Assembly (NCBI GenBank): GCA_034722435.1
Contig: JAYENX010000022.1
Coordinates: forward strand, 1-42,025
Length of the DNA stretch: 42,025 nt
Direction: 5' to 3'
Source of the DNA: Nanobdellota archaeon
GTDB lineage: Archaea > Nanobdellota > Nanobdellia > Woesearchaeales > JAHWHD01
Of the stretch, positions 3,354 through 20,400 are shown piece after piece; position 1 is the first letter of the stretch, and each line of letters opens with the position of its first letter. The position numbers and the translations under genes are program-made. The notes under the pieces are model-generated. The model was not told the origin of the DNA. It saw nothing but the letters and a program-made list of their open reading frames with translations, and did no database searches.

Positions 3354-3392
3354 CTTTTGACATAATCCTCTATAATTATATACAAAAAAACC

Positions 3393-3405: not shown

Positions 3406-3443
3406 CTAAAACTGATTTTTCTTTATAAATTAATTAAACAGGG

Positions 3444-5531
3444 GTGTTTATAATTATTGATAAAAGAGGTCAGATAACTATATTTATAATTATAGGTATC
3501 ATGATTCTGGCAACAGTAGGTATAATTGTCTATGTTCGTTATTCTGCTGTTAAGCCCTCTGTTGGTATTTCTGAGATTGTTCCTGAAGAAGTTGCACCTG
3601 TGAAAGTGTTTGTAGAAGAGTGTCTGCAGCAAGTTGCCACTAGAGGTTTAGAAATTGCGGGTGAACAAGGTGGATACATTGATCCTGAGTCGTGGGGATT
3701 GATTTATAGAGAGAATGATCCTACAAGTGGAAATGCAATAGAATTTACGTCTTTAGTTCCGTATTGGTTTCATCTAGGTGCCGATAATGATTGTTCAGGT
3801 ACTTGTTGGTTTGGTTCAGAGAAACCACCTCTTAGAATTGAGGACGGTAATCCGAGCATACAATCAATGGTTGAACAATATGTTCTTGATAATATTGACC
3901 AATGTTTTAGAAATTTTAACAGTTTTCCACAGTATGAAGTTGTAGTAGAAGGCGAGAAAGAAATAACTTCGATAATCGCACGAAATAATGTAGTGTATAA
4001 TTTTAAACTACCTCTAAAAATCGATTCAGGCTCTACAAAGGCAAAAATTTCTCAGTTTAGCTCAACAGTACAGATCGCATTGCCTGCGCTTTATGATTTA
4101 TCATCAACAATTACAGATACGCAAGCGCAGTATTGTTTCCTTGAACATGACGTTATTGAACTTATATCTATTTTTTCTGGTGTTGAAAAAAATAAGTTTC
4201 CGCCAATGTCGGAAATGAGAATGGATAGTACTCCTGTAATATGGTTTACGCGTGATGTAAAAGAGAAAATGCAGGAACTTCTCCAGAGCTATATTCCACT
4301 TCTACAAATGGAGAATTCTTTAAACTTTAAACAGTTAAGAGTGCCTGACACTGTAGCTAATAGCGATATGATTAATAGAATGTATTCTAACATGATAATT
4401 CCCCTTGACGCAACAGGTTATACTGTATATTTTGATTATTTATCTGACTGGGATATATATTTTGATATGGGTAAAGGTAACATGATAAAACCTGACGGGT
4501 TCAGTGTGCCGTTCTTAGGTTTTGGAATGCAAAAGTATGATTTTGGTTATGATGTTAGCTTTCCCGTAATTGTTACAGTTAATGACCCTACAGCTTTAGG
4601 GGGTCGAGGTTATAATTTTAAGTTTGCTCTTGAAGAAAATATTCGTAATAATAGGTGTTTAGAATCTAATTTTGAAAATTTAGATATATCAAAAGTTTCA
4701 GGTACGTCCATGCTTTGTGATAACGATAAACGTAACTCTGGGTTAATTAATATAAGTGTTAAAGATGAAGAGGGTATACCGGTAGTAGGAGCGTTCATCA
4801 CGTTTGCATCTGATGATGCATGTCCCCTAGGTACAACTGACGGCAGTGGGGAGTATGCAGATAATTTCCCGGTAGCTATTGGAACTTTAAACATCGATCA
4901 TCCTAATTATTTAGCAACTACAAAAGCATATTCAACAAGTTTAGATGAAGATGATGAACAAGACATAGTATTACAAAAATCTAGGAATGTAAAACTTAAA
5001 ATCCTTAAGAAAAATTATATTAGACAACCAGGATGGGCATTCAATAATTTTGAACTTGGATTAGATTTCAAAGAAGAGGCGATATTAACTTTTACAAGAG
5101 TTCCTGAAGAAGGCGAAACAGAATATACAACTATTTCAAGGTATTCTGGTGAAATGTCGTCTAAAAATGAATTTAGTGATGTTGAACTTTATCCAGGAAC
5201 ATACGATGTAAGCATATTGTTATTTTCTTATCGACCTTTAAGAATACCTGAAAGTCATAGAGAAGAAGGTGGATTCTTTGATTCTGTTGAGTTTACAATA
5301 CCAGAAGTTAATATGGAACAATGGCAGTCTGGTGGTCTGGAGATGAAAGAACTGTCTGGACGTTGGACTGTGTCAGCTAATGACCTTGATAGAGCAGATC
5401 ATATTAAATTTTATACCATAGGATTTTATCAAAATGATATGTTAGCTATAGAAGACCTTGATCATATGTCGAAGCTTGAACAGTATACTCAAGTTAATAG
5501 ACCGTATCTAGAACCGAGGATAGAAATATGA
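3444..5531 (+). CDS. Large membrane-anchored protein with class III (prepilin-like) signal peptide; paralogue A1
   Basis: KRGQITIFIIIGIMILATVGIIVYV N-terminus; conserved PVKVFVEECL...GEQGGY; beta-rich body with a transthyretin/carboxypeptidase-regulatory-like segment (ISVKDEEGIPVVGAFITF). True start uncertain (GTG 3444 or ATT 3453). Confidence 0.85.
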   Translation: MFIIIDKRGQITIFIIIGIMILATVGIIVYVRYSAVKPSVGISEIVPEEVAPVKVFVEECLQQVATRGLEIAGEQGGYIDPESWGLIYRENDPTSGNAIEFTSLVPYWFHLGADNDCSGTCWFGSEKPPLRIEDGNPSIQSMVEQYVLDNIDQCFRNFNSFPQYEVVVEGEKEITSIIARNNVVYNFKLPLKIDSGSTKAKISQFSSTVQIALPALYDLSSTITDTQAQYCFLEHDVIELISIFSGVEKNKFPPMSEMRMDSTPVIWFTRDVKEKMQELLQSYIPLLQMENSLNFKQLRVPDTVANSDMINRMYSNMIIPLDATGYTVYFDYLSDWDIYFDMGKGNMIKPDGFSVPFLGFGMQKYDFGYDVSFPVIVTVNDPTALGGRGYNFKFALEENIRNNRCLESNFENLDISKVSGTSMLCDNDKRNSGLINISVKDEEGIPVVGAFITFASDDACPLGTTDGSGEYADNFPVAIGTLNIDHPNYLATTKAYSTSLDEDDEQDIVLQKSRNVKLKILKKNYIRQPGWAFNNFELGLDFKEEAILTFTRVPEEGETEYTTISRYSGEMSSKNEFSDVELYPGTYDVSILLFSYRPLRIPESHREEGGFFDSVEFTIPEVNMEQWQSGGLEMKELSGRWTVSANDLDRADHIKFYTIGFYQNDMLAIEDLDHMSKLEQYTQVNRPYLEPRIEI

Positions 5532-8500
5532 AAGATAAAATAGCAATATTCATGATATGTCTTGTACTAAGTTTGACTATCGTTACTGCTGATGCGTATG
5601 CAGGGATTGTAAGTGTTGAGACTCATGGAATTGATGGCATATCTAATACAGCGGAAAGAGAGGGTTATAGAAGAAATACTAATGATCAAGCGATTATTGA
5701 AGTGGTTGCGGAAAATGCTGATGGAAGTGCTGTGACGAAGGATAAACTGAAAATTGGAACTGCACCTAACTTCCTGAGTTTTACTGAAGATTGTGTACAA
5801 GAACCTCTCTCTACCAAGTATAGATGTAAATTTATTGATACAAGAGATTTTGCGCCAGGTAAACATTCGTTTACTGTAAGGTTATTTGAAACTACAACGC
5901 CAACACAATATACAACTGCGGTTGATGAAAAATCAGGTACACTTTATTCTGATGGTCTAGGGCCTTTGATTGAAATTTTAGAGGTTAGTCAAGTGGGAGA
6001 AAATGTTTCTGTAAAATATAATGTAAGAGATAAAGCTTGCGATGATGCTGATTGTAATGGGAAGTGTGCAGGTATAATGAAAGTAGTATTCCCTGGTGCT
6101 GACCCTGCGTATGAAGAATTGTTGAACACTTCAGATTGTTCAGTAAATAATATTGAAAGTATAGTGCACATACCTCAGACAGGGGTACAAGCAATCACTC
6201 TTGTTGCGCATGATAGGGTGGGTCTTCAGACCACTGCTACATCTGAGCTTCTATTAATAGATACTAATGCTCCGCGAATAGGGGATAATTTTAATATACG
6301 CGTTAATGAACGCGATCTTGGTTACATTTCTACAAGTGCAGGTGATAGAATAATTACTAATGCAGTTCTTACAGTTGAAGTTGATGAAGAAAATATATCG
6401 CAAGCGTTTGCAAATTTGCAAGAGCTTAATTCGTTCAGCGTAATTGAAGATTATAGTAATGTGCCTGCAACAGGGTGTAATCTTGTTAATACTAAATATG
6501 TATGTAACTGGACAGGTCTTAATTTAGTTATATCTGAAGAAGGTCCTAAAATCAGCGTTACAGTTATTGATAAAGCAGGGTATAGCGAAACTAAAGAGAT
6601 ACAAAAGAATCTTCTTGTTGATAATAGTGCTCCAGAGATACTTTTCTTAGGTACTGATAATTGTAAAATGGTGGACGATGAACAAATGTGTTTCATTACT
6701 GACAATAATAATACAATCTTTGCAAGGATTAGAGAGAGCGGTGCAGGGTTTCATCAAAACTTTTCAAGGTTTGGCGAGCTTCGCTATAAACGGATGATAC
6801 TTGACATGACATCTTTAAGAGGAGGAGGTCTTGATAATCTTAGAGTTTTTGCGGATGATTGTGTTCAAACCGGTGCAGATGAATGGGTATGTATATGGAA
6901 AAATGTTAATGTTGATTCTGCGTTCAAAGCTAAAGATAGTTTTAGGTTAAATGTTGTAGATGGTAGCAAGGACGACGCACAAAATTCTGTTGTAGGGATT
7001 ACTTCGGCAACAATATATATTGATAGAACGCTTCCTGTAATCGAAGAGTTAAAAGTTGTTCCTATAACTGAGGCAGGAAGTCTTGAAGGAATATTGGTAG
7101 GTGGTAGGCATGTAAGTGCGATCGCAAAGATTACAGATGAACTACCTGTTACAGGTTATGCTGATTTTTCGAATGTTATATCTGGTGTTGGAGTTGTACA
7201 GGGAGAATGTGCAGTGGTAGAGAATTTCACTACAATCTGTCTATGGGAAGATGCTGGACTGGCTAACTCAGTATCAAGAGAAGAACCTGCATGGGACAGG
7301 GATATATTGTTTACTTTTGAGGATGCAACAGGAAACACTGTTAATCAAACAGTTACTTTAGATATCTTGTTTCAGGAAGATTCGCTTCCTAATTACTGGT
7401 CAATTGATGTTGATGATGTTAGAGCTTCACCAGGGAAACTTGACAAGGCTACGATGCACCTTATACCGCAAAGAGTTTATTTTGAGATTACTCCTCAACG
7501 GACAGGGGTTAGTAATGTTGAACTCAGAGTTTTGGAAATAGAAGGATGTGAAGGAAAGGATTCTGATTTGATCATGGGTGGGAAACTTGTTAGGGGGTCA
7601 TCTAAAGAATGGATTAATCTTGAGATTGTGCCGCATATGCCTGAAGAAAATGTTATTGAATTAAATTTCGAATGTACATTAAAAATAATATCTATAGTTA
7701 ATGATAAAATAGTTACCGGTGCAGAGATTGAGAATGTTACTCTTTCAGTTCCGTTATATGATTCAGGGTTAATATTAGAAGAACAAATAAATGGTAAGAT
7801 TGATGATGCTAAAGATGATTTATTGTTTAAGTTAAGCGATAATGGTGTGTTTGGTACACTGAGTAAAGTTATGGATATTTTTGAAAAAATATGTAAGATT
7901 ACACAGTTATACGGTACAATTGTTCAGTTGATTGCCACAGTAAGACAGGTTGTTGATGTAATGAGCGGTACTCCGTGGGGAGAAGCTGCGAAAGCTAAGA
8001 ATACAAAACTGCAATCAATAACTAATAGTGCTAAGCAAGGTATGTTGAAGCACGTGTATAAATGGTGCGAGTTTATATCGTGTAATAAGAAAAATACTGA
8101 GAACATATTTGGGTCTAGTATGGGTTCTTTTTATTTTAAGGATGCTAAAAAGACTAAGAATTTTGGTTTCTTTGGAAGTTTATCAAAGTATCCAGAAAAT
8201 CCTAAAGAGAGTTTGGCATTAAGTCTGAGCACTGGATGTATACCTGGAATAATATATAATCTTAGAAAGTATAGAAAAATCAATTGTGAATATATATCAT
8301 GTTTAAAGAAGAAGGTGCCGGCAGGTACTCCGATTTCAGTATGCGAGTATCAGAAAAGTTATGCAACATGTACATTTGTATGGGGTAACCTTTTTAGCAT
8401 AATTCCGTTTGCAGGTGCGCTTCAGAAAGTGTTCCAACAATTTTATTATGCGCTTTCGCACCCGCTTAGTCTTGTGACTGGGTTCGTCATGTCGAAAGTG

Positions 8501-8683
8501 TTAGCATGTAAAACAAAAGCTGTAACTGATGCTAAAAAGGGTGTAACAGCATATAATGTGGCATGTACATTTGTTTATCTTGTTCCAGAGATAAAACGGT
8601 TAACTGAGGATTTGAAGAATTTTGCTGATAAATCCGCATGGACAGTTGATGATTCAGTATGTAGTATATTAGACGAGGAATAA
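5528..8683 (+). CDS. Secreted 1051-aa protein: Ig-like repeats plus C-terminal Cys-rich helical domain; paralogue B1
   Basis: Sec-type signal peptide; repeated D-x-x-[AL]P-x-I Ig-boundary motifs (DTNAPRI, DNSAPEI, DRTLPVI); many Cys pairs; CIPGII Cys motif at 8237; ATGA overlap with upstream gene. Confidence 0.85.
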   Translation: MKDKIAIFMICLVLSLTIVTADAYAGIVSVETHGIDGISNTAEREGYRRNTNDQAIIEVVAENADGSAVTKDKLKIGTAPNFLSFTEDCVQEPLSTKYRCKFIDTRDFAPGKHSFTVRLFETTTPTQYTTAVDEKSGTLYSDGLGPLIEILEVSQVGENVSVKYNVRDKACDDADCNGKCAGIMKVVFPGADPAYEELLNTSDCSVNNIESIVHIPQTGVQAITLVAHDRVGLQTTATSELLLIDTNAPRIGDNFNIRVNERDLGYISTSAGDRIITNAVLTVEVDEENISQAFANLQELNSFSVIEDYSNVPATGCNLVNTKYVCNWTGLNLVISEEGPKISVTVIDKAGYSETKEIQKNLLVDNSAPEILFLGTDNCKMVDDEQMCFITDNNNTIFARIRESGAGFHQNFSRFGELRYKRMILDMTSLRGGGLDNLRVFADDCVQTGADEWVCIWKNVNVDSAFKAKDSFRLNVVDGSKDDAQNSVVGITSATIYIDRTLPVIEELKVVPITEAGSLEGILVGGRHVSAIAKITDELPVTGYADFSNVISGVGVVQGECAVVENFTTICLWEDAGLANSVSREEPAWDRDILFTFEDATGNTVNQTVTLDILFQEDSLPNYWSIDVDDVRASPGKLDKATMHLIPQRVYFEITPQRTGVSNVELRVLEIEGCEGKDSDLIMGGKLVRGSSKEWINLEIVPHMPEENVIELNFECTLKIISIVNDKIVTGAEIENVTLSVPLYDSGLILEEQINGKIDDAKDDLLFKLSDNGVFGTLSKVMDIFEKICKITQLYGTIVQLIATVRQVVDVMSGTPWGEAAKAKNTKLQSITNSAKQGMLKHVYKWCEFISCNKKNTENIFGSSMGSFYFKDAKKTKNFGFFGSLSKYPENPKESLALSLSTGCIPGIIYNLRKYRKINCEYISCLKKKVPAGTPISVCEYQKSYATCTFVWGNLFSIIPFAGALQKVFQQFYYALSHPLSLVTGFVMSKVLACKTKAVTDAKKGVTAYNVACTFVYLVPEIKRLTEDLKNFADKSAWTVDDSVCSILDEE

Positions 8684-8684
8684 A

Positions 8685-9239
8685 ATGGTTGATCAAATAT
8701 TCAGGGGATTACCTGTACCAGAAAATGTTATCAGGAAAAGAAGGTTTATGTTTTTGATAGGTATAGTGATAATTATAGTCGCAATTATTGGATTGGTTAT
8801 TTTTTTAACTGGCGATAAAGAAACAGTAACTGAGGATATTAATATTGATAATTTCCAGATTAATAAAGCGGTTTTGGCTAATAGTGTAGGAGATGATTTT
8901 GTGTACACTGAAAAGTCAGGTGAAGAATATAACATCGGTGAGCCTATAACCATGTACTTGGAATCGGTTGGGTATCCAACATATCAAGAAGGAGATAAGT
9001 ATTTGGTAAGTTCGAGTTTTAATGTAGTAATGATTGATGCAGACGGTTATTCAATTGCAACACACACAGGTAATGTTGTGAGTATTAATGATTTTATGGA
9101 TGATAAAAGTTTATTGAAATATTCAGGAGTGTTAGATTCGAGTAGTCTGGAACCAGGAGAGTATAAGTTGGAGTTCGAGGTTACAGATGATATTACTAAT
9201 ACCAGAAGAACAGTCACAAAGGATATTATTGTAAAATGA
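8685..9239 (+). CDS. Single-pass membrane protein with an extracellular Ig-like domain
   Basis: RKRR followed by one hydrophobic helix; C-terminal LEPGEYKLEFEVTD beta-sandwich motif; starts 1 nt after the upstream stop. Confidence 0.8.
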   Translation: MVDQIFRGLPVPENVIRKRRFMFLIGIVIIIVAIIGLVIFLTGDKETVTEDINIDNFQINKAVLANSVGDDFVYTEKSGEEYNIGEPITMYLESVGYPTYQEGDKYLVSSSFNVVMIDADGYSIATHTGNVVSINDFMDDKSLLKYSGVLDSSSLEPGEYKLEFEVTDDITNTRRTVTKDIIVK

Positions 9240-11764
9240 AGAAGTTAGTTATATTCGGATTGTGTATGATTTTGTTAAGTAGTTTGGTAATTGGAGCTAT
9301 AACAAAGCCTAGTAATCTTCCGAATGGTAACTTTGAAAGTATTGTAACGGGAAGAGATGGTTCAATCATTCAAATTTGGCAATATGAGGGTAATTATTAT
9401 AGGCGAGTGGGTACAGAAGATGCTACTGAAATTACAAATACTTTAACAGTAAAAGATCCAACTTCACCTAATAATATTCGAATCTGGACACCGCCAAAAC
9501 CAACACCCGCTACAGCGATCTCGTCATCAACTGCTTCGGGAGGTAGTACTCCGTCTGCAGCGGCACAAGCTGTGTATAGGTTACAAACAATGAGTGGCAC
9601 AGGACTTATCGAAAGTTTTACTAATCTACAGAAAAAAGATCCACAAGCGACAAAAACAACATCTGATGATTTTATGACAACTCAAATAAGTTATACTCAA
9701 ACTAATGGTATAAGGGTAACAAATACTTATACTTATGAAAAGGGTAAATATGTTCTTAAAAAACAACAAAGTTCAACCTCTAAATCAGGAGTTACATCAG
9801 TTACTTTGTATGGAGAAAAAAGTAAAGAACAATATCTTGAAACTAGTGTAGAGGGTAAACCTGTTAGTAGAGTATATACAGATGGAGAAAGAACTGATTT
9901 TTATTCTAGTGACAGGGCATACATTAAAAAATATACAAAACCAGGTACAACCGGAGTGTATTATCAAGAGGTTGTTACGAAAATTGATGGAAAGGATGTG
10001 AAAGTTACATATGTAATAAATCAAAAGACGGGAGATATTGATAAAACAGTTATTGATAAACAAGTAACCACAGGTATGACTGCACAAATGGAAAAAGAGT
10101 TAAAAGCTAAGTTAGAAGTTAAAAGAGTTGAACTTCTTAATGCTGAAAGAAAGGCTGCCGGGTTAACGCCAACTGCTAAACCTGCGACTCCAACGCCTGG
10201 AGCGGTTACAGTAAATAGTGCTCAGTTAAGTGAAGTTGATAAACTGTTAGGCGAAGAATTGAGAAATGCAGATTTCTTTATAGGGGATTATTATAGAGAC
10301 GATAAAAATAATAGAGAGGGTTTCCAAATAACTAATGTCATGGGAGATTCATTTTATGTGTCTGGCGAAGCAGGGACAGGTATATCGGGGCCAAAGTTTG
10401 TTCTTAGAGATAAAGCAGGTAAAATATTATTTACGGCGAGTAGCAGGTCAGAGTTATTAGCTGCGATGAATAAAGCGCCGGCTTTAGCAGCTGCAAAGGT
10501 TACTAAGAAAGGATTGACGGGCGAAGCGATTTATGATTCTGCAATTATTAAAGATGCGGCGAGTAAATATTTAAATGATTTAAATAAGAGGATAAGGGAG
10601 GCAGAAGGAGACGCACAAGAAGCTTTGAAAAAAGAAAGAAGAGAATTTAGGGATAGTGAAGAAAAGCAGTATAAAGCAGCACAAAACTTTTTAAAAGATA
10701 AAACAACTTCAGAGAAAGAATATATTAAAACTTATACCAAATATAGTAATACATTTAGAATTACGGATATATATGATAAAGAGGATGGTACAATATCAAG
10801 GTTAGCGGCTGTTCAGACTAATCAAGGTTTAGTGGCTTTAAACAATGAGCAGTATCAAGGTTTGATAAAGGAGTTTGAAGAGTTTGCGGGTCATCAGTTT
10901 TTTGATGCAGAAGGTGTTGAGAGAAATGCAGTGGCAAGAGCTATTAAGAATAAAGACGGGACAGTCAGCATGCAACTCGAATACTGGGACGGAACGCAAT
11001 GGATTAAGGGACGAACTGACGATATAAAAAGGCGTGTTAAGGCTGCTAAAACTGGCAAGGTTCCGATAACAGCGCAACGTCTTTATGCTTGGACACAGAA
11101 AGGTGCGCAGTTCACTAGCTTGTTAGGGTTTAAAGAAGAAGAAGCATGGGAGTGGGCTGATGAATTATTTGGACCTGGAGAAGTTGCTGATTTCTTGAAA
11201 GGTAATTGGGAAGATAGTGTGTGTACGGGTTTCAAGTTTGTGGATAAACCGTCTGAACAAGGAGTTCTTATGACTGATGGCGGACAGGGAACTCTTGCAG
11301 CACATATTGAAGCTGAAAGAAGTGAATTAACATTTTATAATGATACAACTAAAACTGAGCAAACAGAATACTTGTACAAGATAACGTACGCGTTTGATAC
11401 TGGCGAAGCAGGTAAAGAAGATGGTAATTTGATAGAATTTAATATTAAACTTAACCCGAACGGTAAAAAGTTATATGATGATGATTATAAAATTGGAGGG
11501 AAAGATAATGGTGTAGACGTACCTAATTATGCGGGCAGATTGGGTTCAAGCGCGATTCTGCTTTATTTCCCTGAAAAATATACAGAAATATGTTTAACGT
11601 ACAAATTACAAGGTAACTGGCCGTTGAGCGGTGAGGAAATATGTAATACAGTAATTGATACTGTAGGGAAAGATATATTGGATGAAGTTCCGGATACAGA
11701 ACCTGCGGACACGCCTGGCGAGACAACACCTGAAGGATATACTCCTCCAACCATAGAACCATGA
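9236..11764 (+). CDS. Secreted 842-aa hypothetical protein with Pro/Thr/Ser-rich linkers
   Basis: Signal peptide MKKLVIFGLCMILLSSLVIGA; PPKPTPATA, SSSTASGGSTP, PTAKPATPTPG linkers; Pro/Thr/acidic tail; ATGA overlaps at both ends. Confidence 0.8.
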   Translation: MKKLVIFGLCMILLSSLVIGAITKPSNLPNGNFESIVTGRDGSIIQIWQYEGNYYRRVGTEDATEITNTLTVKDPTSPNNIRIWTPPKPTPATAISSSTASGGSTPSAAAQAVYRLQTMSGTGLIESFTNLQKKDPQATKTTSDDFMTTQISYTQTNGIRVTNTYTYEKGKYVLKKQQSSTSKSGVTSVTLYGEKSKEQYLETSVEGKPVSRVYTDGERTDFYSSDRAYIKKYTKPGTTGVYYQEVVTKIDGKDVKVTYVINQKTGDIDKTVIDKQVTTGMTAQMEKELKAKLEVKRVELLNAERKAAGLTPTAKPATPTPGAVTVNSAQLSEVDKLLGEELRNADFFIGDYYRDDKNNREGFQITNVMGDSFYVSGEAGTGISGPKFVLRDKAGKILFTASSRSELLAAMNKAPALAAAKVTKKGLTGEAIYDSAIIKDAASKYLNDLNKRIREAEGDAQEALKKERREFRDSEEKQYKAAQNFLKDKTTSEKEYIKTYTKYSNTFRITDIYDKEDGTISRLAAVQTNQGLVALNNEQYQGLIKEFEEFAGHQFFDAEGVERNAVARAIKNKDGTVSMQLEYWDGTQWIKGRTDDIKRRVKAAKTGKVPITAQRLYAWTQKGAQFTSLLGFKEEEAWEWADELFGPGEVADFLKGNWEDSVCTGFKFVDKPSEQGVLMTDGGQGTLAAHIEAERSELTFYNDTTKTEQTEYLYKITYAFDTGEAGKEDGNLIEFNIKLNPNGKKLYDDDYKIGGKDNGVDVPNYAGRLGSSAILLYFPEKYTEICLTYKLQGNWPLSGEEICNTVIDTVGKDILDEVPDTEPADTPGETTPEGYTPPTIEP

Positions 11765-12546
11765 AAGATATGTTTAAAGAAAGTTTTAGGAATGTGAAAA
11801 AAAGATTGTTCTGGGTAGTTGCAGGAATGGATTATGCGTTCTTTGCGATATCGGCTTTAGCCATTTATATTTATAGTTTAGCAATTGCAAATGTTGGCGG
11901 ACTTATGCCTGATAGTGTTGATTTTCTTGCACCTGAAAGTGTTCTTGCATCACAATCAACAGCGTTCCAAGGTGCAATAACTACAATCGTAATTTATACA
12001 ATTATATTGTGCGTGTTTATACTATTTAATTTTAGCTTTTGGCGTGGTATGATATGGGCCAAGATATTAAAGAAAAAGTATAATTTTAAGAAAATGTTAA
12101 GGTTTAGTTTACTTAACTTACCTTATCTTATCATTTTTTTAATTATAATGGGGCTTTACACTTTAGTAGTATTTTTATTATTGAGAAGTTCTATGATGTA
12201 TATTGTTCCAGGAATAGGAGAGGTTGCTTCTAGTCTGGTGATGCTTCCAGTATATATTTTAATATTCCTTCCAATCTATACGTACTTAATCAATGTTACA
12301 AATATATTACATATCAAGTTTTTCAGTACAAAACATTATATTAAAGAAACTATCAAGACAATAATGGATATCAAGAAATTATGCGTACATTTAATATTGA
12401 TGGGTATTATTATGTTAATATTTTTATATATTTATTCGTTGCCAATATTTATGGCAGAATCATATATAGGAATCATGTTTACATTTATATTAGTAGTATT
12501 ATATTGTACATGGTTAAAATTGTATATTGTTAAGTTAGTACATTGA
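11761..12546 (+). CDS. Polytopic membrane protein (~6 TM); paralogue C1
   Basis: Six hydrophobic segments; similar to 22317..23081. Confidence 0.8.
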   Translation: MKDMFKESFRNVKKRLFWVVAGMDYAFFAISALAIYIYSLAIANVGGLMPDSVDFLAPESVLASQSTAFQGAITTIVIYTIILCVFILFNFSFWRGMIWAKILKKKYNFKKMLRFSLLNLPYLIIFLIIMGLYTLVVFLLLRSSMMYIVPGIGEVASSLVMLPVYILIFLPIYTYLINVTNILHIKFFSTKHYIKETIKTIMDIKKLCVHLILMGIIMLIFLYIYSLPIFMAESYIGIMFTFILVVLYCTWLKLYIVKLVH

Positions 12547-12582
12547 AGAGTATAGAAAATTAAGTTAGAGTATCGAGTAAAA

Positions 12583-14469
12583 ATGATTAACCAAAAAAAG
12601 AGGGGACAGGTAACGTTATTTATAGTCATAGGCATAATTATGTTGATAGCTGTAGGTTTATTCTTTGTGTTTAGACAATTATCAATTCCTGGTCCTGACA
12701 TGAATGTACCTGATGAAGTTGTGCCTGTGAAACTGTTTGTAGAAGCGTGTTTAGAAGATACTTTGAAAGATGCAATTGTTTTAGCAGGTATCCAAGGAGG
12801 ATATACTGAAATTCCCGAAGATCTTGCAGTGAGTCCGTTTGGGCATTTACAAGTTGCAGGTCCGTTTAAAACGCCAATGTGGTACTATTCAGGTGTTCTA
12901 AGAATACCTGAAATTTTTGAGATTGAAGAACAACTTAATAATTATGTAAACAAGAATATTGAATTATGTATTCAGAACTTTACAGGAATAGAGGCTTTAA
13001 CAGTAAATATTCTTTCTGAGCCTAAGTTTAGCACACAGATTAATAAAAATGATGTTAGTATTGTTATGAATCAAGATATTGAAATTGTTGAAGGAGATGA
13101 AAGATTTGAATGGAACTTTTTCTCTACCGAAGCAGATGTAAAGTTATCAAAAGCTTATGAAATTGCTAAACAAGTTATGGAAAAAGAAAATGAAAATATG
13201 TTCCTCGAGACTGTAACTATTGACCTTATGGCTCTCGACCCTGAAGTTCCATTGACAGATTTCAGGTTTGACACGTGTCATAGATTAACGTGGTCAGAGC
13301 GAGCGATAAATACTAGGTTGAAAGATACATTATATTATAACATGCCGCGTTTACGTGTTGACCGAACAAGGTATGAAAAGTTTGATGATGATGAAGATTA
13401 TCAAAAGAATCATTTTCTTATGGATGCCATAAACCAGGATGAAAAAGATATCACGGTAGGGTTTAGATATGATAAAGATTGGTCAATGTTATTAAATGCT
13501 AGACCTAGTGATGGAGATATCCTGAAAAGTAATAGTGGAAAAGGTTTTGCTAAGTATATGTCTTTCTTATGCATGAACATGTACCATTTTACTTACGATA
13601 TTGAATATCCTGTTGAAATCATAATAAGAGAGGGTACTAGTTTTGATGGTGAAGGGTATGTGTTTAGGTTTGGTACACCTGTAATAATAAAACAGAACCA
13701 GGGTAACAGAGTTTTTGTTGGTGAACCTGAGTTTGAAGTGCCAAGGTATGATACTGATATGTGCGAAACGCAAACTGATGAAGTTTATGATATACGTGCT
13801 ATAGACCCTGTCACGAATGAAGAAATGATTGCTAATGTTTCATTTGAATGTATAGTGTTCAGGTGCGATCTTGGTGAGACAGGATTGACTGATGATGATT
13901 TGGCAGTATCTTTAAAGACGCCGCTTCCTTCAAGTTGTACAGGCGGACATCTTATAGTTAACCCGCAATATGATGAGTTCTTTAATAGAGGGTATTTTGA
14001 GAGTGTGCACCATATAAGTTTAGACGAGATATCTACTAGAGAAGCAATAAATATACCTATTAAGCCGTATAAAAAAGTTGAAATTGATATAAAGAAATAT
14101 CTTAAAGAAGATTTAGAGACTGCACTCGAACTATCAGATGACGAAGAAGTGTTGATACAGTTAGAAAATAAGGATGAAGATTATTTTGAGTTTTATGTAT
14201 GGAGCAAGAATGGAGAGAATGATAAAATTAATTTATTGTTGTTAGAAGATGTTACTTATGATGTTAATTTAATGATTACTAAGGGCGAGCTTTACATGGG
14301 CGGATACAAAACTGCGTGGGATGTTTCATACAGCGATGTCGCTGATAATGAAAAGGTTGAGTTCCCTGTAATATATGGTGCAGTAACTGGAGATGATGAA
14401 ATGGTTGATCTTATCACTTATATCGAGACAGGGTTATACGCACAATTGCTGAAACCGGAGTTAATATGA
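12583..14469 (+). CDS. Large membrane-anchored protein with class III (prepilin-like) signal peptide; paralogue A2
   Basis: KKRGQVTLFIVIGIIMLIAVGLFFVF; PVKLFVEACL...GIQGGY; YHFTYDIEYPV matches YDFGYDVSFPV of 3444..5531. Confidence 0.87.
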   Translation: MINQKKRGQVTLFIVIGIIMLIAVGLFFVFRQLSIPGPDMNVPDEVVPVKLFVEACLEDTLKDAIVLAGIQGGYTEIPEDLAVSPFGHLQVAGPFKTPMWYYSGVLRIPEIFEIEEQLNNYVNKNIELCIQNFTGIEALTVNILSEPKFSTQINKNDVSIVMNQDIEIVEGDERFEWNFFSTEADVKLSKAYEIAKQVMEKENENMFLETVTIDLMALDPEVPLTDFRFDTCHRLTWSERAINTRLKDTLYYNMPRLRVDRTRYEKFDDDEDYQKNHFLMDAINQDEKDITVGFRYDKDWSMLLNARPSDGDILKSNSGKGFAKYMSFLCMNMYHFTYDIEYPVEIIIREGTSFDGEGYVFRFGTPVIIKQNQGNRVFVGEPEFEVPRYDTDMCETQTDEVYDIRAIDPVTNEEMIANVSFECIVFRCDLGETGLTDDDLAVSLKTPLPSSCTGGHLIVNPQYDEFFNRGYFESVHHISLDEISTREAINIPIKPYKKVEIDIKKYLKEDLETALELSDDEEVLIQLENKDEDYFEFYVWSKNGENDKINLLLLEDVTYDVNLMITKGELYMGGYKTAWDVSYSDVADNEKVEFPVIYGAVTGDDEMVDLITYIETGLYAQLLKPELI

Positions 14470-17400
14470 AGAAATCAACAATAGGGATACTTGTATTAAT
14501 TTTGTTAGTTGTACCAATGGCGCATGGTTTAACAATCGGTAGTGTATCAGTTACAGGTGTAGATGAAAATACTATAGAGGTTAACTGGACAAGCGATATT
14601 GCTTCTGATTCGAAAGTTTTGTTTGGCCAAACAACTTTAGACAGTGTTGAGTATAGTTCAATAGTTCAATCTTTACATTCAATAAAATTAATAGGTTTAC
14701 AGCCTGATACTGAATATTTTGTAGTTGTAGAATCGAGCGATGGCAGTAATATAGAAAGAAATGATAACGGCGGTAATTATTATATAGGGAAAACCAAACC
14801 GACAGTTTTGTTTAATAATATAGGTGTAGAAAATGTTGGGACGAATACAGTAGACATTAAATGGGAGACAGATAAAGATACAAGCGGTAAAGTTATATAC
14901 GGTTTAAGTTCAAATCTTGAATTGTCTGCATCGAATAATGTTCTTGCAACTAATCATACAATATCATTATCAGGTTTAGTAAACGGAACTAAATATTTCT
15001 ATAAAGTCGTGGCAGATTATGCAGAGTCAGAGATTAAAGAGTTTACAACGAGAAGCGATATTAGTCAGCCAGATATTACTGAGATTTACATTCCGGAATA
15101 TTATAATAAGAATAGTATTAACATCCAAGGAAAAACTAAGCCGGGTTCTGAAGTAAAACTTTACCTTGAAGACAGATTTATCAGAGCAGGAACTGCGAGA
15201 AGTACTGGAGATTTTAGTTTTAATTATGTTAATCTGGAAAAAGATGTCAATAAAATAAAGTTACAAGTTATCGACACATACGGAGAAGAGTTTGAGAAAG
15301 AGTATACAATTACTATTGATACAATTGCGCCGAATATAAGTTTGAAAAATCTTCCAGAGTCAATTAAACAAGCAAGTATAAAGCTTGACGGTGAAGTAAA
15401 TGAACCTGTAGAGCTTACTATCAAAGTAGGAAATAAAACAGTTTCTTTCAATACAAGTAATAAGATTAGTCAGACTCTTACTTTTAGTGAAGGAGATAAT
15501 GATGTACACATTCTTGCAAGGGATAGAGCAGGGAATGTCTGGGAAGTTAAGAGAAGAATATATTCTGATAGTAAAGATCCTTCATTCGATATGGTGGATA
15601 GAGAGGGTAAAGTTATCAGTATATCTTCTTACAGTCCGTCAATATCGAAGATTATCAGGTTAAGAGGGAAAGCTACTGAGCAAGCAGAAATTATCATTAA
15701 AGTTAATGAAAGAACGTATAAGACGGCAACTAAAGCAGATTTTACGTGGGAGCAACAGATTGAGCTTGAGCGAAAAGTGGTTAGTACAGGAGATATAGGT
15801 CCTAATATCCCGCCAATGGAACAAAGGATAGAACTTGCTGAAAGGTATGCTAACACTATAGAAGTTCATGCTGTTGATAGGTCAGGAAGAGAATCTCCAA
15901 AGAAGAGTGGTACAGTTTATTATCAATTATGTGGAAAAGGTGGAGACTGGGACATAGTTATATCCCCACCAAATCCTGGAGCGTTATCCCCTATAGATCT
16001 TCAGAGAGGGTATGGTATGCTAGGGTTTGAGATTGATCTTGTCTGGCAAGGCGGTGGCGATGCTAGTAAGGCAAAGATATCTGGCAGACCAACCATAAGA
16101 AAGTTTACTCAGATAAGTTCTGAGCTTCGTAAAGAGTATAATATGGATTTAATAGGAACCATACATAAAGATTTCTTAAAAAATAAAGGGTATGTTACAA
16201 TAAATCTTGGTAAGACTGATGATGTTGAAGAATTTGAAACATTAAAGTTTCCTCTTGAGATAGATATACCATATTCGTATGATGAATTTGGAAAACAGGT
16301 ATCGGCAAGGCAGACTACATGTTTCACAATTGAAATTTTGGTTGATAAAACATTTGATGAGTCAAAAATTCCAGAAGGGTTTGTAAAAAGTTCTATCAAG
16401 TTCTTAAACAGTACGATCGAGGTTCTTGATAAAGTGATAGATCCTTTGAAAAAGGTTGAAAAGTTTGTGTTTATAGGTTGTAAAGCTATGCAGTTAAGAA
16501 GTATATTTGACAGAGCTAAAGAGGTAAGAGCTTGTTTCCCTTTCAAGAACAGGATACCGTTAACTGTAATGAAACCTGCCAAAGCTGTTAAAGATGTTGA
16601 AGATTGTAGTAATGTTTTATCGTCAAGCCTTAACAGCGGTTTCCCTGCTGGAGATGTTAAATCGCTTTGCGAAAGTTGTATGGTGGCTAAACAAGGGGCT
16701 GAAAAAGCTAAACATGAAATGGCATTGATCTGTGATAGATATACATGTCCTACAGTACCTACAGTTCAATATTATTCAAGAATTAATGAAGAAAATAAAA
16801 AGAAAACAACTACAACAAAACTTTACTATGCGCCAAATAGCGGTTTTAGTTTACAGAGTAACTGTGACATTAATACTATCACAAGTCTTGCAAATGATAT
16901 GAAAGATGGTAAACTGGAAGGTTCTGAGAAAGATAAGTATAAAACGTGTGAAAAAGAGTACGAGTTTTTGTGGGGACCTGGAACTCTTACAGAACAAAAT
17001 AAAATATTTGAAAAATCTGCGAAATTGTCTGCGCCTGATGATGTAAGATCTAACATGAATACTGGCGGATTATTTAATACAATAAGTAGCCTTTGCGGAG
17101 AGGCAAAGAAAAGTGTTGATTCTAGAAAGTTATGGATTGATAATCGTGAGTTTACTTTTGATGGGAAAGATAAGTCATGGGCAGTGACAGATTCTGTACC
17201 GGTAGGAACTTCTAAAGATAAGCAAGAACAAATATTAAAATCTACAAATACGGTTACAAGGTACGGAGACTGGTTCTATTATAATTTTGAACCTAACTTA
17301 GCAAGCGCATATGGCGAAGTTCCTTTAGATGTAATGGGAAAAAATAAAATTGTTCTTTACAATCCTGTGAAAGCGCCAGTTGAAAGACCTGATTCGCCTA

Positions 17401-20400
17401 AGAATGTTGAGTTAGCAGTAAATAAAGATGGTGTATTATTTTATAAGAAGACAACTGCAGAAAAGAAGTCGTGGTGGGTGCCTGATCAAACAAGTAGAAG
17501 TATAATTTCAAGTTCAACAGGGAGACCTTTAGAACTTAACCAGTTAAAGACCGAATTCGAACGCCAAGAAAATAGCGGTAAATGGTTGATTGAATCTACA
17601 GACGGGTTATTGTCAAGTATTCAAACAGTTTGCGTTCCAGGAATTATTTCGCATATGGAGAATCTTAAGACTGTAAGTGAACAGTTGAAAAGATGTTTCC
17701 AGAACCTTCTAATAAATGACGAGTTCAGGGCAGGGTATTGTAAATCTTTGATAGCTGAGCATGTATGCGATTTAGTGTTTAATCTTATAAGGTGCAGTTT
17801 TAAAGTGTTTGAAGGTAAACCTAGAGAGACAAGAATACAGGCGGGTGTGCCAGGATTTTTCTCAGCTTTAAGTTCTGCAGGAGGAGAAGTTAACAAAGAT
17901 ATCAGAGAAAGGTACGGAAGTACTCTTACATTTGATGCCATATTTAATGATAGAAAACTTGTACATCAGATGTGTCTAGGAGCTTTTAATCATGATTGGG
18001 ACTTTAATATTGAGACAATGTTGGAAGAGACCAGACAGAGAGCAGTACCTATAAAACCTGACGTGTTTGTGTTCCCTACAGAGTATAAATATTACGGGTT
18101 TAATCCGTTGAATGGACGATCCAATATAATGTATCATGCAGGTCTAGGTATTGTTGCAGGAGCTGACATGGATTATGAAGTTAATTTGATATGTAGTAAT
18201 GATAACTCTTGCTCTGATGCTGACGGTTTTGCAGGCGGTAGATGCGATTGTAGTTATGAAGGCCGCGGCGAGATTAAGAAAAATATTGTAAGAGATAGGT
18301 TGACTAAAGGAGAGAGTAACTGGGACGATGCTGATTCGTCAGATATAAGAAAATTACTGAAAGATCTTCAGTATAGGTTCGATAAAATCGAAGTAAAATG
18401 GCGATATAAAGATGCGAAAGGACAGACTGTTACTGATAGTGTTGTTAAAGATCTTAGATTAACAGGCGGTCTTCCATCGGAAGGTTGTAAATTTGACATT
18501 ATTTCTAACGAGTTTAGATGTTTATTCGGGTTCGGTACAGATGGTTATGCTAAATTTGTTGGTGACGTTAAACCATTACAAACAACTTTCCAGGTTGGTG
18601 ACCCTATCAAGTTTAAAGGAAGAATTGATAAGTATAGTCCTGAAGGAGAGAGTAACAGAAATGTTGTGCTAAGGGCAGAAGTGTATAATGATGCGGGCGA
18701 CAGAATAGATAGTACGGGTGGAAGGTTAGAGTTTAACATGCGCGAAGATAAACGGTATTATCTAGAGACTGATTTTGCTGAAAGGGGTGTTCCAGGGTAT
18801 GTAGTTAAACAGGAAGATTTTGTTAAATTCGGAAGCACGTCTACAGGTATATTTAATAGTAATAAAGGAACAAGTTCAAAGTTCTGGGAAGTTTATCCTT
18901 CCCCGTATCTTGCATTAGTAAGCGGAGATATTGGGACTGCAACAGTGAAAGTTGAGTTTACTGATAAAGAATATGAAATCAAGACATCTTCGTATGTGCG
19001 CGGTTCAACAAGAGGCATTATACCTGATGGAAACTTGGTTATCCAGGTTGGATCAGGGACGATTATATTAAAAGATGCAAAAAATAAAAGGCAAGTTGGA
19101 GAAATTCTTTCATTTGAACCTCCAAGGACACATGTAAATCCTAAATATAAAGTTAAGTTAAGCCTACACACTACAGACGCAACAGGAACGCCTAATGCTG
19201 AGTCGATAGACGAGATTGAAGTTGAAGTGACTGTGAGAAGTTCTTTCTCAGGAAGTACTTGTACAACTGATGGTAGAAAGGCGTATGGAGAGTGCGATTG
19301 TAATGGTGACGGTGTCAAAGAATGCGGTAAGTCGGGAGGTAACCAGTATTGTTACAAAATATATGATAGTACAACTAAAAAGGTTGCTGAGAAAGCCTCG
19401 TGCAATAAATATCCTTTATGTAGACAAGGAGAGGTTACAGAGATATGTGATTGTAATGAAGATGGAATGCTTAGTGTTGACCTTAGCTCTAGCAGAGCAG
19501 TTGAAAGTATAAACTTTGGCTTACTAAAGTATGGAGCTAATAAGGAACATACTTATAATAATTTTAAGATATATAGAGATTCAGAAGGTAATAAAGAGTT
19601 GTTATTCTATATAGACGGTTCAGGGCAAAGAAAATATCTGGGTGCTGAATGGGATAGCGTTACATTCAATAGCGGTGATTATGATGGTACGACTTTTAAG
19701 TACAAAGGTCAGGATATCAATTATAAAGGTTCAGAATTTTTTTACATAAGTGAAGAAGGAATTACTAGAAAAGGGCACAGAATTATTGTTGATAGAATAC
19801 AAAATGAAAGGTTAGTTAAAGATAGTACGGATGAAGATTTTGGAGAATTTGATTTAGATTTAGATGCTTTTGAAGATGAACCAGATACCAAAATTGATTC
19901 ATATGTTGAACTTTTCAGGAGATGGAGTGAGATAGTTCTTAAATCTGATAAAACGTCTAGTTGTGAAGGTACTGAGTATAAATATTGTTTTAGTAAAGTG
20001 TGTTATGGCGAAGATATAAATTCAAATCCTGCAGGAGGAACAACAACAAGTACAACTTTACAAAGTGTTTCTAAAATAGGGGTTGATTGGAATGAACCAA
20101 TAAAACGTGAAGATTTAAGAACTGTTGGTTCAAAATGGGACCCTTTCAATCACCCATATGATGTAGATAGATATAGTGCAACTATGTATACCCACAGATG
20201 GCAATCAATTCATAGGGGAATGGATATTTATACTAATAGAAATAATGCACCAGTTTATGCATCGGCTGATGGAGAGGTAATACGTATTTCAAATACTGTT
20301 GTTTATGTTTTACATAAGGGTGTGGGCGGAGAATATACTGGATGTTATGTACATGTTACTAATCCTGCTGTCGCAGTTGGACAAAATGTAAAAAAAGGAG

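Follow-up and report, generated by a model that had tools for sequence, protein, structure and literature searches.

Two giant exported proteins, B1 and B2, contain a previously undescribed all-helical, Cys-rich extracellular domain. They are anciently diverged paralogues, and the homology of their helical cores is supported at least within a central hairpin. The core resembles a rigid hub, for the assembly or anchoring of a complex on the cell surface, more than it resembles part of a membrane-piercing toxin. Both proteins are encoded in the window analyzed here, a stretch of 42,025 nucleotides from a Nanobdellota archaeon (contig JAYENX010000022.1, assembly GCA_034722435.1); all features described below lie on its forward (+) strand. 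The source archaeon is tiny, symbiont-type and Woesearchaeota-like, and is a probable episymbiont.

Architecture of B1 and B2

B1 (5528..8683; open reading frame and translation) comprises 1051 aa and combines a Sec signal peptide and Ig-like beta domains with a C-terminal Cys-rich helical core. None of the Pfam and NCBIfam families searched match it. The relatives that were compared are about 1000–1100 aa long and also carry the domain at the C terminus. B1-type proteins possess a signal peptide and many Ig-like domains without an anchor, and they occur as roughly one copy per genome in 77% of the sampled genomes.

B2 (14466..20576; translation) is considerably longer, with 2036 aa. Its Sec signal peptide is followed by FN3/Ig domains and the helical core, then by a conserved beta-rich region and, at the C terminus, an M23 peptidase; its Pfam matches are fn3, Pur_ac_phosph_N, Glucodextran_B, Big_6 and Peptidase_M23. 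The M23 domain (20208..20459; PF01551 with 52.6 bits, cut-off 28.7) lies outside the shared core. It is missing in all three B2 relatives that were aligned and is not conserved across the B2 family. The preliminary description had placed a helical Cys-rich core amid beta-sandwich domains, and the structural models and the Pfam matches agree with this, the domains being Ig/FN3-like. The core is the sole region common to B1 and B2 in sequence comparisons. Among the B relatives it is also the most conserved part, the Ig arms and the C-terminal ends being variable.

The Cys-rich helical core

In B1 the all-alpha core domain spans residues 735–1051 (7730..8680). Its AlphaFold2 model, based on 29 sequences, shows helices throughout (pLDDT 74, pTM 0.61). 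The family alignment reveals 11 invariant Cys, all of which are kept in 146/146 representative B1-type relatives. A profile of this domain matched 1436 protein clusters at E<=1e-3. Of the 401 genomes sampled from the order, 309 contain the B1-type domain. One B1-type protein (from genome G238) carries an insert of about 670 aa in the core.

Three ordered motifs had been claimed for both proteins, and their positions and spacings were found as described in both translations. Motif I of B1 (L777..D782 and C789-K-x-x-Q793-L794; 7856..7909) is situated on the first long helix of the model (774–812). Motif II (C847-x4-C852; 8066..8083), of which both Cys are invariant in the family, lies at a helix end. 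Motif III (C904-IPGII-x15-C925-x13-C939-x8-C948; 8237–8371) belongs to the nucleus that is shared with B2. In B1 the nucleus covers residues 886–960 (8183..8407; joint alignment A5) and consists of a short helix, the C904-IPGII helix with C925, a loop, and a helix with C939 and C948. With a pLDDT of 84–93, it is the most confident stretch of the B1 model.

The core region of B2 (residues 625–1240; 16338..18185) is kept in 212 of the 401 genomes. In its AlphaFold2 model (28 sequences) the helices are broken by a poorly predicted beta-rich insert, so that the mean pLDDT of 55 contrasts with 70–87 for the helical segments. Motif I (L654..D659 and C672-K-x-x-Q676-L677; 16425..16496) is again located on the first long helix (637–696) and motif II (C756-x4-C761; 16731..16748) at a helix end, where all 28 relatives keep D757, R758 and P762. 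The longer insert noticed earlier between the motifs of B2 is real: it occupies approximately residues 857–1037 (17034..17576), from motif II to the nucleus, contains short strands only (pLDDT <50) and differs in length among relatives. The nucleus follows at residues 1038–1114 (17577..17807; B1 profile match and joint alignment A5), with the C1056-VPGII helix carrying C1077, a loop, and a helix with C1092, C1101 and C1110. Motif III reads C1056-VPGII-x15-C1077-x14-C1092-x8-C1101 (17631–17768). Behind the nucleus, a Gly-rich segment (G-G-I-G-G-F-F...A-G) is conserved in the B2 family. The Gly/Ala-rich helices described in this part of both proteins hold for B1, where residues 960–1001 are helical (pLDDT ~70); in B2, residues 1123–1137 are mostly low-confidence loop.

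Homology of the two cores

Judged by sequence comparison, the nucleus (motif III) of B1 and B2 is truly homologous. Plain BLASTP of B1 against B2 is marginal (E 0.033), and hhalign with deep alignments of the full domains yields a probability of just 24–33%, albeit with an E of 6–8e-4 and a Cys register identical to that of the preliminary description. Such values, and the lack of significance of the upstream motifs, could still be reconciled with unrelated Cys-rich helical regions that came to possess a common C-P-G-I-I motif by convergence or chance. Several observations make this highly improbable. A profile of 29 public B1-type domains matches B2 1026–1104 with 22.3 bits (E 1.4e-5) in a search of all 4346 six-frame ORFs of the genome. 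B2 is the only match other than B1 and lies four orders of magnitude ahead of the runner-up (E 0.067). In reciprocal searches the B1 nucleus matches the B2 profile region. None of 3000 shuffles of the B2 core, including those with fixed Cys positions, attained the real score (maximum 8 versus 24.7 bits), which places motif III far beyond chance in the shuffled controls that had been suggested. When the 75-residue core alone was aligned, a window picked post hoc, the hhalign probability rose to 94% (E 1.9e-7). The joint MAFFT alignment of 57 sequences requires only about one single-residue gap per family, and the secondary-structure context of the nucleus is alike in both models. Moreover, bridging proteins from other orders of the class are hit by both profiles, with E 1e-7 to 2e-12 for B1 and E 4e-5 to 8e-8 for B2, and the two profiles align on the same 52–57 residues.

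The homology claimed for the entire set of motifs is thereby confirmed for motif III, but motifs I and II are not significant by themselves. By HMM they score only about -1 to +2 bits, and their hhalign E is 0.29, in a register that is seven residues off the one first described. The family mean of 0.64 bits versus -3.4 +/- 1.0 for shuffles is suggestive only. Both motifs are nevertheless collinear in B1 and B2 and fall on equivalent predicted helices. The core models of B1 and B2 matched none of the solved folds and Pfam/NCBIfam families against which they were compared.

Paired A genes and a conserved neighborhood

Each B gene is preceded by an A gene. A1 (3444..5531; translation) encodes a protein of 695 aa whose class III (pilin-type) signal motif is K-R-G-Q-I-T; the A1 stop overlaps the start of B1 by 4 nt. 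A2 (12583..14469), with 628 aa, is a paralogue of A1 (BLASTP E 8e-37) that carries the same signal motif and overlaps the B2 start, likewise by 4 nt. Relatives of the A proteins retain the class III motif as K/R-G-Q-[IV]-T. Since A1 and A2 are clear paralogues, a single tandem duplication is indicated: A and B were duplicated jointly. The paralogy of the adjoining A genes also argues against a chance resemblance of the B cores.

The pairing is found well beyond the window. An A-type gene adjoins the B1-type gene on the same strand in 27/27 genomes inspected, and the A2-B2 adjacency held in all five other genomes inspected for this pair. Each module also includes a polytopic membrane protein, as recognized by hydropathy: E261 in the first (11761..12546) and H254 in the second (22317..23081), with a weak mutual similarity (E 0.029). 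In other genomes, relatives of E261 lie in the interval from B1 to A2, and those of H254 come after B2 in three genomes (G352, G010 and G073). The gene order A1-B1...E-A2-B2-H is maintained across families. No filament genes are present in the A-B cluster; the genes for an A24 prepilin peptidase and for a type IV filament ATPase and platform lie at other places in the genome.

Proposed membrane activity

The core had originally been read as a possible alpha-pore-former or fusogen. On this view its amphipathic and Gly/Ala-rich segments would insert into the host membrane on contact, and the outcome would be the bridges or pores believed to be required by DPANN cells. Neither the insertion nor this outcome appears probable, and the pore or fusogen reading of the core is not supported. 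A predicted helical bundle within a giant protein that a probable episymbiont exports would suit it, as would the conserved Gly-rich segment behind the B2-family nucleus and the adjacent, moderately hydrophobic helices 947–965 and 976–994 of B1 (KD19 1.3–1.4). In some family members, core windows exceed the hydrophobicity threshold (7/30 and 10/29). In B1 and B2 themselves, however, all 19-residue windows beyond the signal peptides stay below the Kyte-Doolittle transmembrane threshold (1.6), with core maxima of 1.38 (B1) and 1.13 (B2). The mean Eisenberg hydrophobicity of the predicted helices is <=0.48 each, and <=0.31 for helices of >=11 residues. Such values are ordinary for soluble bundles, and the hydrophobicity analysis reveals no membrane-competent hairpin.

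The fold comparison with alpha-pore-forming toxins and fusogens likewise returned noise-level scores only. The best Z was 6.0 for B1 and 6.9 for B2, when about 13 is needed for helical models, and no match above noise was obtained to colicins, ClyA/MakA, Cry, Tc or viral fusion proteins. With colicin Ia (Z 5.3) and ClyA/MakA (MakA, Z 5.2) the B proteins share the long helical hairpins of a secreted protein, but their core contains no hairpin of membrane-spanning quality. Alpha-helical pore-forming toxins are not known to be heavily Cys-stapled, as the core would be. Engineered disulfides block the insertion of colicin- and Cry-type helices, and the 11 invariant Cys would argue for a locked scaffold rather than a refolding one. 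A wall-cutting M23 domain would suit a breaching device, but this part of B2 is not conserved in the family. The oligomerizing core, offered as an alternative in the preliminary description, is close to the hub reading preferred here.

Comparison with known surface systems

In Sulfolobales, SlaA is the canopy protein and SlaB the membrane-anchored stalk protein. The A-B pairs are similar in that an anchorless Ig-rich giant is encoded beside a smaller membrane-held partner, with a helical, stalk-like attachment element that is putative in the A-B pairs. B1 might then be an S-layer (canopy) protein, with the core as lattice-forming or anchor-binding domain, and B2 a second, specialized layer component. 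The size of the B1-type proteins, their signal peptide, Ig-rich and anchorless build, single copy and wide occurrence would fit, as would the SlaB-like neighbor. However, the searches revealed no sequence or fold tie to any S-layer protein, SlaA and SlaB included. Here, the helical Cys-rich element is part of the giant, the module is duplicated, and the anchor carries an N-terminal pilin-type signal instead of a C-terminal TM helix. We regard this S-layer reading as unlikely. It overlaps with the hub reading, as the core is an assembly module in both.

Type IV pilus tip complexes consist of minor pilins and the non-pilin adhesin PilY1. They resemble the present system in that a large Sec-exported non-pilin is encoded with, and presumably carried by, class III signal proteins; the prepilin peptidase and filament ATPase genes are here found at a distance. 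On the other hand, the A proteins (600–800 aa) are far above pilin size, and the beta-propeller and vWA domain of PilY1 were not detected. By analogy, the hub logic would resemble that of SlaA on SlaB or PilY1 on minor pilins, with B a member of neither family. A modular pilin is known in PilB of Streptococcus sanguinis (PMC8179133), and type IV filament systems were reported to be uncommon in DPANN (PMC13705601).

EnvC and PcsB are coiled-coil regulators fused to LytM/M23 or CHAP hydrolases and controlled by FtsEX. B2 similarly contains long helical hairpins and an M23 domain, with polytopic membrane-protein genes downstream. Both appear among the structure matches of B2, but at noise level (PcsB Z 5.7, EnvC Z 5.1). 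Furthermore, the M23 domain of B2 is about 800 residues from the core and missing in the three aligned relatives, and B1 contains no hydrolase domain.

Module 98 of Castelle et al. 2021 (PMC8204110) groups 51 unnamed lineage-specific protein families of Pacearchaeota/Woesearchaeota. It includes giant extracellular proteins such as fam00969, which has a murein lytic-transglycosylase domain, and its large exported proteins have no annotated function and a proposed role in cell-cell contact (PMC8204110). The organisms are the same, large exported proteins occur in both cases, and B2 ends in a different murein hydrolase, M23. No transglycosylase Pfam domain occurs in the B2-type relatives listed, and no Cys-rich helical domain is described in that study (PMC8204110).

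A proposed disulfide-stapled hub for surface assembly

Our best, still tentative explanation is that the core may serve as a disulfide-stapled hub that holds B in complex with A. If both A-B pairs share a homologous interface, the core is the candidate for the B side, being all that B1 and B2 have in common in sequence comparisons. The coupling of B to A is supported by the 4-nt overlaps, the A paralogy, the 27/27 adjacency, the kept gene order, the class III motif of the A proteins and the presence of the prepilin peptidase and type IV filament genes in the genome. In the B2 family Cys are lost in sets (672 and 756 in three relatives; 714 and 735; 690, 738, 761 and 1056 together), and this pairwise loss is the behavior expected of disulfide partners. 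Together with the complete invariance of the 11 Cys in the B1 type, it suggests a scaffold rather than a moving part. As 11 is an odd number, at least one Cys must be free, intermolecular, or paired outside the domain. The core sits mid-protein in B2, as it does in certain B1-type proteins (family f81), and this position suits a hub and not a simple anchor at the C terminus.

Alternatively, the core itself could be an adhesion domain that binds a ligand or host, with the link to A elsewhere in B. It would then be comparable to the DBL domains of Plasmodium, which are Cys-rich helical recognition modules. Its export, its Cys-rich all-helical build and its place in giant surface proteins fit this, and the large inserts tolerated at one site (in B2 and in the protein of G238) could be a variable binding loop. 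Host-facing binding domains are usually fast-varying, however, and here the arms and ends vary while the core is conserved. DBL or other adhesion domains are absent from the fold matches listed, and we hold such a role to be unlikely.

The conserved nucleus is predicted to be a hairpin of some 75 residues. It opens with a short helix that ends in Ser. A Cys-Pro-Gly N-cap then begins a long helix, which bears another Cys 21 residues further on, and a short loop with Gly leads to the return helix, whose two Cys are nine residues apart. The domain of B1 is C-terminal and compact, with about 315 aa and 11 Cys; that of B2 is split by the insert of about 180 residues and followed by about 800 residues that end in the M23 peptidase. 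In the hub reading, the core cysteines would pair as disulfides and thereby fasten the helices to one another as a rigid stalk or hub. Through this hub, the anchorless B would assemble with the membrane-held, pilin-like A at the cell surface, and the hub may also contact the polytopic E/H proteins or further B copies. The outward-directed work would fall to the Ig/FN3 arms and to the variable C termini, here M23.

Homology of the hairpin nucleus

The two giant exported proteins B1 (1051 aa, 5528-8683, plus strand) and B2 (2036 aa, 14466-20576, plus strand) each possess a Cys-rich helical core (B1 735-1051, B2 625-1240), which includes a hairpin nucleus of ~75 residues (B1 886-960, B2 1038-1114). 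According to the preliminary description, three ordered motifs are shared by the two cores, namely motif I (L-x-KV-x-D...CK-x-x-QL, 7858-7909 and 16424-16496), motif II (C-x4-C) and motif III (C-[IV]-PGII-x15-C-x13/14-C-x8-C, 8237-8371 and 17631-17768). All of these were found in the translations at the places and with the spacings claimed. A direct BLASTP comparison of B1 and B2 was marginal (E 0.033, at the C-x-PGII block) and too weak to decide on common descent.

Family alignments and profiles were built from loci fetched from the genomes of relatives. When all 4346 six-frame ORFs of the genome were searched, the B1 profile matched residues 1026-1104 of B2 with 22.3 bits (E 1.4e-5), the next match having an E of 0.067. 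The real score was reached by none of 3000 shuffled B2 cores and likewise by none of 3000 shuffles with the Cys kept fixed (maximum 8 bits vs 24.7), so that the motif III resemblance is significant against both controls. In the reciprocal search, where scores were low, the same few dozen residues were the best stretch of all 29 B2-type and of 29 of the 30 B1-type sequences. Profile-profile alignment (hhalign) of the whole domains gave E 6-8e-4 and reproduced exactly the Cys register proposed for motif III (C904=C1056, C925=C1077, C939=C1092, C948=C1101). For the 75-residue nucleus alone, a window picked after the match was known, the probability was 94% and E 1.9e-7.

The nuclei of 29 B1-type and 28 B2-type proteins could be joined in a single MAFFT alignment (A5) with about one single-residue gap per family. 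Three Cys are invariant in these 57 sequences and the fourth is present in at least 90%; B1 886-960 and B2 1038-1114 both fit the resulting pattern, S-x4-C-[ILV]-P-[GA]-I ... C ... G ... C-x8-C. This Cys-Pro-Gly helical hairpin is used here to define a B-core superfamily, made up of giant exported proteins from archaea of the Woesearchaeales type. The A5 profile has exactly two matches in the source genome, B1 and B2 (E 2e-29 and 2e-23; next 0.034). Both family profiles also match, over the same 52-57 residues, proteins of 1142-2540 aa that belong to the same class but to other orders (E 1e-7 to 2e-12 with the B1 profile, 4e-5 to 8e-8 with the B2 profile). Sequences bridging the whole domains were also looked for; only the hairpin was bridged. 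The proteins of family f81 are matched by the B1 profile in both halves, on either side of a large insert, and gave no match to the B2 profile. The early profiles had included two sequences of genome G092 (L003, L033); with the public-only alignments A3, A4 and A5, repeats of the key tests gave the same results. From these comparisons, the nuclei of B1 and B2 are very probably homologous.

In the other orders, open frames of 1142-2540 aa (loci L096-L100, from G420, G520, G463, G415 and G506) contain, of the core, the hairpin nucleus only, in the form P-[IV]-C-[IL]-T-G ... C-L-K ... G-[IV]-C-D ... I-C-[DE].

The upstream motifs

Motifs I and II had been presented as shared in the same way, and taken alone they proved not significant (HMM scores of ~-1 to +2 bits). 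The hhalign comparison of the upstream motifs gave E 0.29, and its register differed from the proposed one by seven residues (two helical turns). Scored with the N-terminal half of the B1 profile, the B2 family had a mean of 0.64 bits, and shuffled families had -3.4 +/- 1.0. This excess favours relatedness of the two motifs in a suggestive manner only, since the relatives are non-independent and shuffling removes the helical periodicity.

Three indirect points favour the proposed collinear order of the motifs. In both AlphaFold models the first Cys lies on the first long helix, C-x4-C stands at the close of a later helix and Cys-Pro-Gly caps the next long helix, which is preceded by a short Ser-containing helix. 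Among the relatives of B2, C672 and C756 are lost together in three sequences, while C690, C738, C761 and C1056 are jointly absent in one; this would be predicted by disulfides between motifs I and II and between II and III, a pattern that alignment error could mimic. Finally, a B1-type protein of genome G238 is significantly matched by the B1 profile on both sides of a ~670-residue gap (E 6e-12 and 1e-16). Very large inserts can thus be accommodated between the N-terminal helices of the domain and its nucleus, as was proposed for B2.

The core of B1 also contains two near-identical stretches, W-C-E-F-I-S-C-N-K-K (846-855, nt 8063-8092) and N-C-E-Y-I-S-C-L-K-K (919-928, nt 8282-8311), of which the Cys spacing alone is kept in the family consensus. 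They may be the trace of an internal duplication of a unit consisting of a helix and C-x4-C.

Distribution and conservation of the core

The C-terminal 312 residues of B1, searched as a single sequence against 401 genomes from the order of the source organism, gave matches in 309; the matching stretch is typically C-terminal in an open frame of ~1000-1250 aa. The central 601 residues of B2 matched 212 of the same 401. Of 301 genomes in a phylum-wide sample filtered for quality, 186 matched: the matches were strong within the order and confined to the nucleus elsewhere in the class, and the other classes sampled gave none. All three tallies include genomes flagged as unpublished (G092, G112, G121, G206, G208, G210, G303, G335, G370, G374 and G501). 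An exhaustive search of 1.84 billion representative proteins with the B1 profile returned 1436 clusters at E<=1e-3 and 677 at E<=1e-30, most of them proteins of ~1000-1100 aa that carry the domain C-terminally. The named hits are 'hypothetical' or 'fibronectin type III domain-containing' proteins of Woesearchaeota/Nanoarchaeota; the exceptions are a 'chitodextrinase' label and a record assigned to Pseudomonadota.

The eleven Cys of the B1 domain are all retained in each of the 146 full-length representatives. B1 belongs to a subtype of ~315 aa with 11 invariant Cys, usually located at the C-terminus of a ~1000-1100-aa protein; B2 falls outside it, as it has no counterpart of C920 and only its nucleus matches significantly. 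The core is the best-conserved region of the B proteins, the arms and C-terminal ends being variable. The M23 domain at the C-terminus of B2 (PF01551, residues 1915-1998, 52.6 bits vs a curated cut-off of 28.7) lies outside the shared core and is absent in all three relatives that were aligned.

Strong family conservation in B2 also extends beyond the helical core to residues ~1241-1412 (18186-18700), a strand-containing stretch with a G-A-D motif. With invariant Cys at 1243, 1249, 1260, 1262, 1341 and 1352, this is a second Cys-rich region, which B1 lacks.

Predicted structure

The AlphaFold model of B1 735-1051 is all-helical (mean pLDDT 74, pTM 0.61), and the nucleus is its best part (pLDDT 84-93). 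In the model of B2 625-1240, confident helices (pLDDT 70-87) surround a poorly predicted short-strand insert (mean pLDDT 55 overall). With these models, Foldseek returned at best E 0.35 and TM <0.25 against the PDB and no match against BFVD. VIA-align against 48,161 chains gave best Z-scores of 6.0 (B1) and 6.9 (B2), where helical models need a Z of ~13 to be meaningful. A profile search of the PDB sequences reached E 0.14 at best, the core had no match in the local Pfam and NCBIfam libraries, and scores in an ESM Atlas feature search (<=0.78) were noise. No known metal-site pattern was recognised among the Cys. A precomputed Pfam accession (PF27332.1) is attached to one relative, P0197, and may or may not cover the core domain.

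Two further candidates were set aside: a phage-type C-terminal intramolecular chaperone, for which the match was at noise level, and an EnvC/PcsB-type hydrolase regulator, for which a noise-level match was combined with a non-conserved M23 domain.

The gene cluster and its chromosomal setting

The source genome, of which the window forms contig 22, measures 1.3 Mb and is 94% complete. The region is flanked by housekeeping genes (MetRS, enolase, iPGM, SAH hydrolase and a class II aminoacyl-tRNA synthetase of the Asp/Lys/Asn type), and, judging from the public names given to close homologues, the organism belongs to the DPANN archaea of the Woesearchaeota/Nanoarchaeota type. Between MetRS and enolase, a block at 3444-23081 encodes on one strand A1 (695 aa), B1, a 184-aa protein, an 842-aa protein, the polytopic membrane protein E261, A2 (628 aa), B2, a SpoIIM-like membrane protein, a 305-aa protein and H254, a second polytopic membrane protein. 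Each B gene starts within the A gene that precedes it, with an overlap of 4 nt. A1 and A2 are clearly paralogous (E 8e-37, ~400 residues), and E261 and H254 show weak similarity from their N-termini (E 0.029). Apart from weak sub-threshold Pfam hits on A1 and the 305-aa protein, no Pfam or NCBIfam match was found for the A proteins, E261, H254, the 842-aa and the 305-aa protein.

The order (MetRS)-A1-B1-...-E-A2-B2-H is conserved in five genomes of different families. In 20 of 20 further genomes the B1-type gene has an A1-type gene directly beside it on the same strand (18 with A then B, 2 with B then A), and two genomes of family f81 display B-A-B-A. An A gene was hence found beside the B1-type gene in 27 of the 27 genomes inspected (5 + 20 + 2).

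Several other features of the locus were observed. The MetRS gene immediately adjoins A1-B1 in many genomes of different families (1233-5531; loci L101, L104, L105, L108 and L109), which indicates that the module occupies a conserved chromosomal position. In family f81 (L092, G238:C9:8000-24500; L093, G175:C4:43000-58000) the arrangement is MetRS-B-A-B-A, and the B1-type domain lies mid-protein (~residues 700-1020 of ~1600), with ~670 residues inserted within the domain in one copy. The gene of the SpoIIM-family polytopic membrane protein (20576-21406, Pfam 47 bits) lies directly downstream of B2 and overlaps its end; in Bacillus, SpoIIM is a scaffold for wall hydrolases. This gene was not recovered beside B2 in five other genomes checked with phmmer. 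A stand-alone small M23 peptidase (187 aa, 25816-26379, Pfam 51.6 bits) is encoded 5 kb downstream of B2, past enolase and iPGM. Minus-strand open frames of 106-157 aa run antisense to B2 (16109-16582, 17621-17941, 18893-19318) and are most likely chance frames, without support, within a long low-GC gene.

Pilin-type signals of the A proteins

The N-termini of A1 and A2 consist of K-R-G-Q-[IV]-T followed by ~20 apolar residues, which is the pattern of the archaeal class III (pilin-type) signal. In 11 of 14 A relatives inspected, [KR]-G-Q-[IVL]-[TS] with ~20 apolar residues is kept; the other three are A/S-Q variants. A prepilin peptidase (Peptidase_A24, 58.5 bits) is encoded on contig 36; as in type IV filament systems, a partner with a class III signal peptide is thus accompanied by a prepilin peptidase in the genome. 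An assembly ATPase and platform encoded together with the pilin-like genes, another mark of such systems, were not observed: no such genes were found among the ORFs of the A-B cluster, and T2SSE and T2SSF (filament ATPase and platform) are encoded outside it, on contig 59.

Proposed roles: membrane-active core or assembly hub

The helices of the core had been likened to those of pore-forming toxins and fusogens. As far as the sequence can tell, an exposed hydrophobic hairpin is missing, an outcome that the preliminary description had itself named as counting against its reading, and this part of it was not supported. Outside the signal peptides, no 19-residue window of B1 or B2 reaches the usual Kyte-Doolittle threshold for membrane segments (mean 1.6); the maxima in the cores are 1.38 (B1) and 1.13 (B2), compared with ~3 for the true membrane proteins of the cluster. 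Core helices of at least 11 residues have a mean Eisenberg hydrophobicity of at most 0.31 and the moments of ordinary bundle helices. Among the relatives, 7 of 30 B1-type and 10 of 29 B2-type sequences do exceed 1.6 somewhere in the core. The membrane-spanning hydrophobic hairpin that characterizes pore-forming toxins was not found. The similarity of the B2 model to known pore-formers (colicin Ia, Z 5.3; MakA, Z 5.2) is within the noise of helical models, and none were listed for B1. Fusogens (the class I viral type and fusexins) carry their own anchor and a fusion peptide or loop. Neither was found in B1 and B2, which contain no TM segment besides the cleavable signal peptide; the Gly-rich segment of B2 is a low-confidence loop in its model, and no structural match for the cores was obtained in BFVD or the PDB.

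A pore or fusogen role is possible. It is improbable that the core serves as the central part, membrane-active or channel-forming, of a contact machine specific to DPANN archaea. In such a machine, disulfides would keep the core inert on the surface of the symbiont. The Ig arms and hydrolase tips would engage the host, after which reduction or a partner-induced rearrangement would free the core for breaching the host envelope or fusing with it. If true, the core would be the first candidate, at the molecular level, for the means by which these archaea establish a connection with their hosts.

The invariance of the Cys, in a domain that is exported, speaks for a stapled scaffold. As the B proteins have no anchor of their own and the A proteins are anchored, the simplest model is that this putatively Cys-stapled, best-conserved core acts as an assembly hub. 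In this predicted role, which is quite conceivable if somewhat short of probable, B would join the membrane-held A through its core at the envelope, possibly together with E261/H254 or further B copies. The arrangement is proposed by analogy with the assembly of SlaA on SlaB and of PilY1 on minor pilins. In a close variant of the hub model, B1 would have a role in an S-layer; no link to known S-layer proteins came from Pfam, NCBIfam, PDB sequences or fold searches (SbsC, Z 5.4, is noise). A role of the core as a binding domain is also possible.

Novelty and significance

A 51-family module specific to Pacearchaeota and Woesearchaeota, mostly unannotated and with many predicted extracellular members, has been described together with giant murein-transglycosylase proteins (Castelle et al. 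2021, PMC8204110). No description of the core domain was found in the literature. The novelty lies in the protein family and its fold; a mechanism is not part of it.

DPANN archaea of the Woesearchaeota type represent a large share of the diversity of the Archaea. Hardly any have been cultured, and they are presumed to live attached to other cells. To our knowledge, no attachment or exchange machinery has been reported for them. Through the analysis, a resemblance of motifs has become a defined domain family. The family has a usable profile (alignments A3 and A5), comprises ~1400 protein clusters (50% identity), is present in about three quarters of the sampled genomes of the order, and combines eleven invariant Cys with no known fold. 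The domain is central to a gene module that is conserved and duplicated, and it is always paired with a pilin-signal protein. With ~315 residues, the core is a compact expressible target that allows a binary test between a hub and a membrane-active role, and its profile provides a marker for locating the module in metagenomes.
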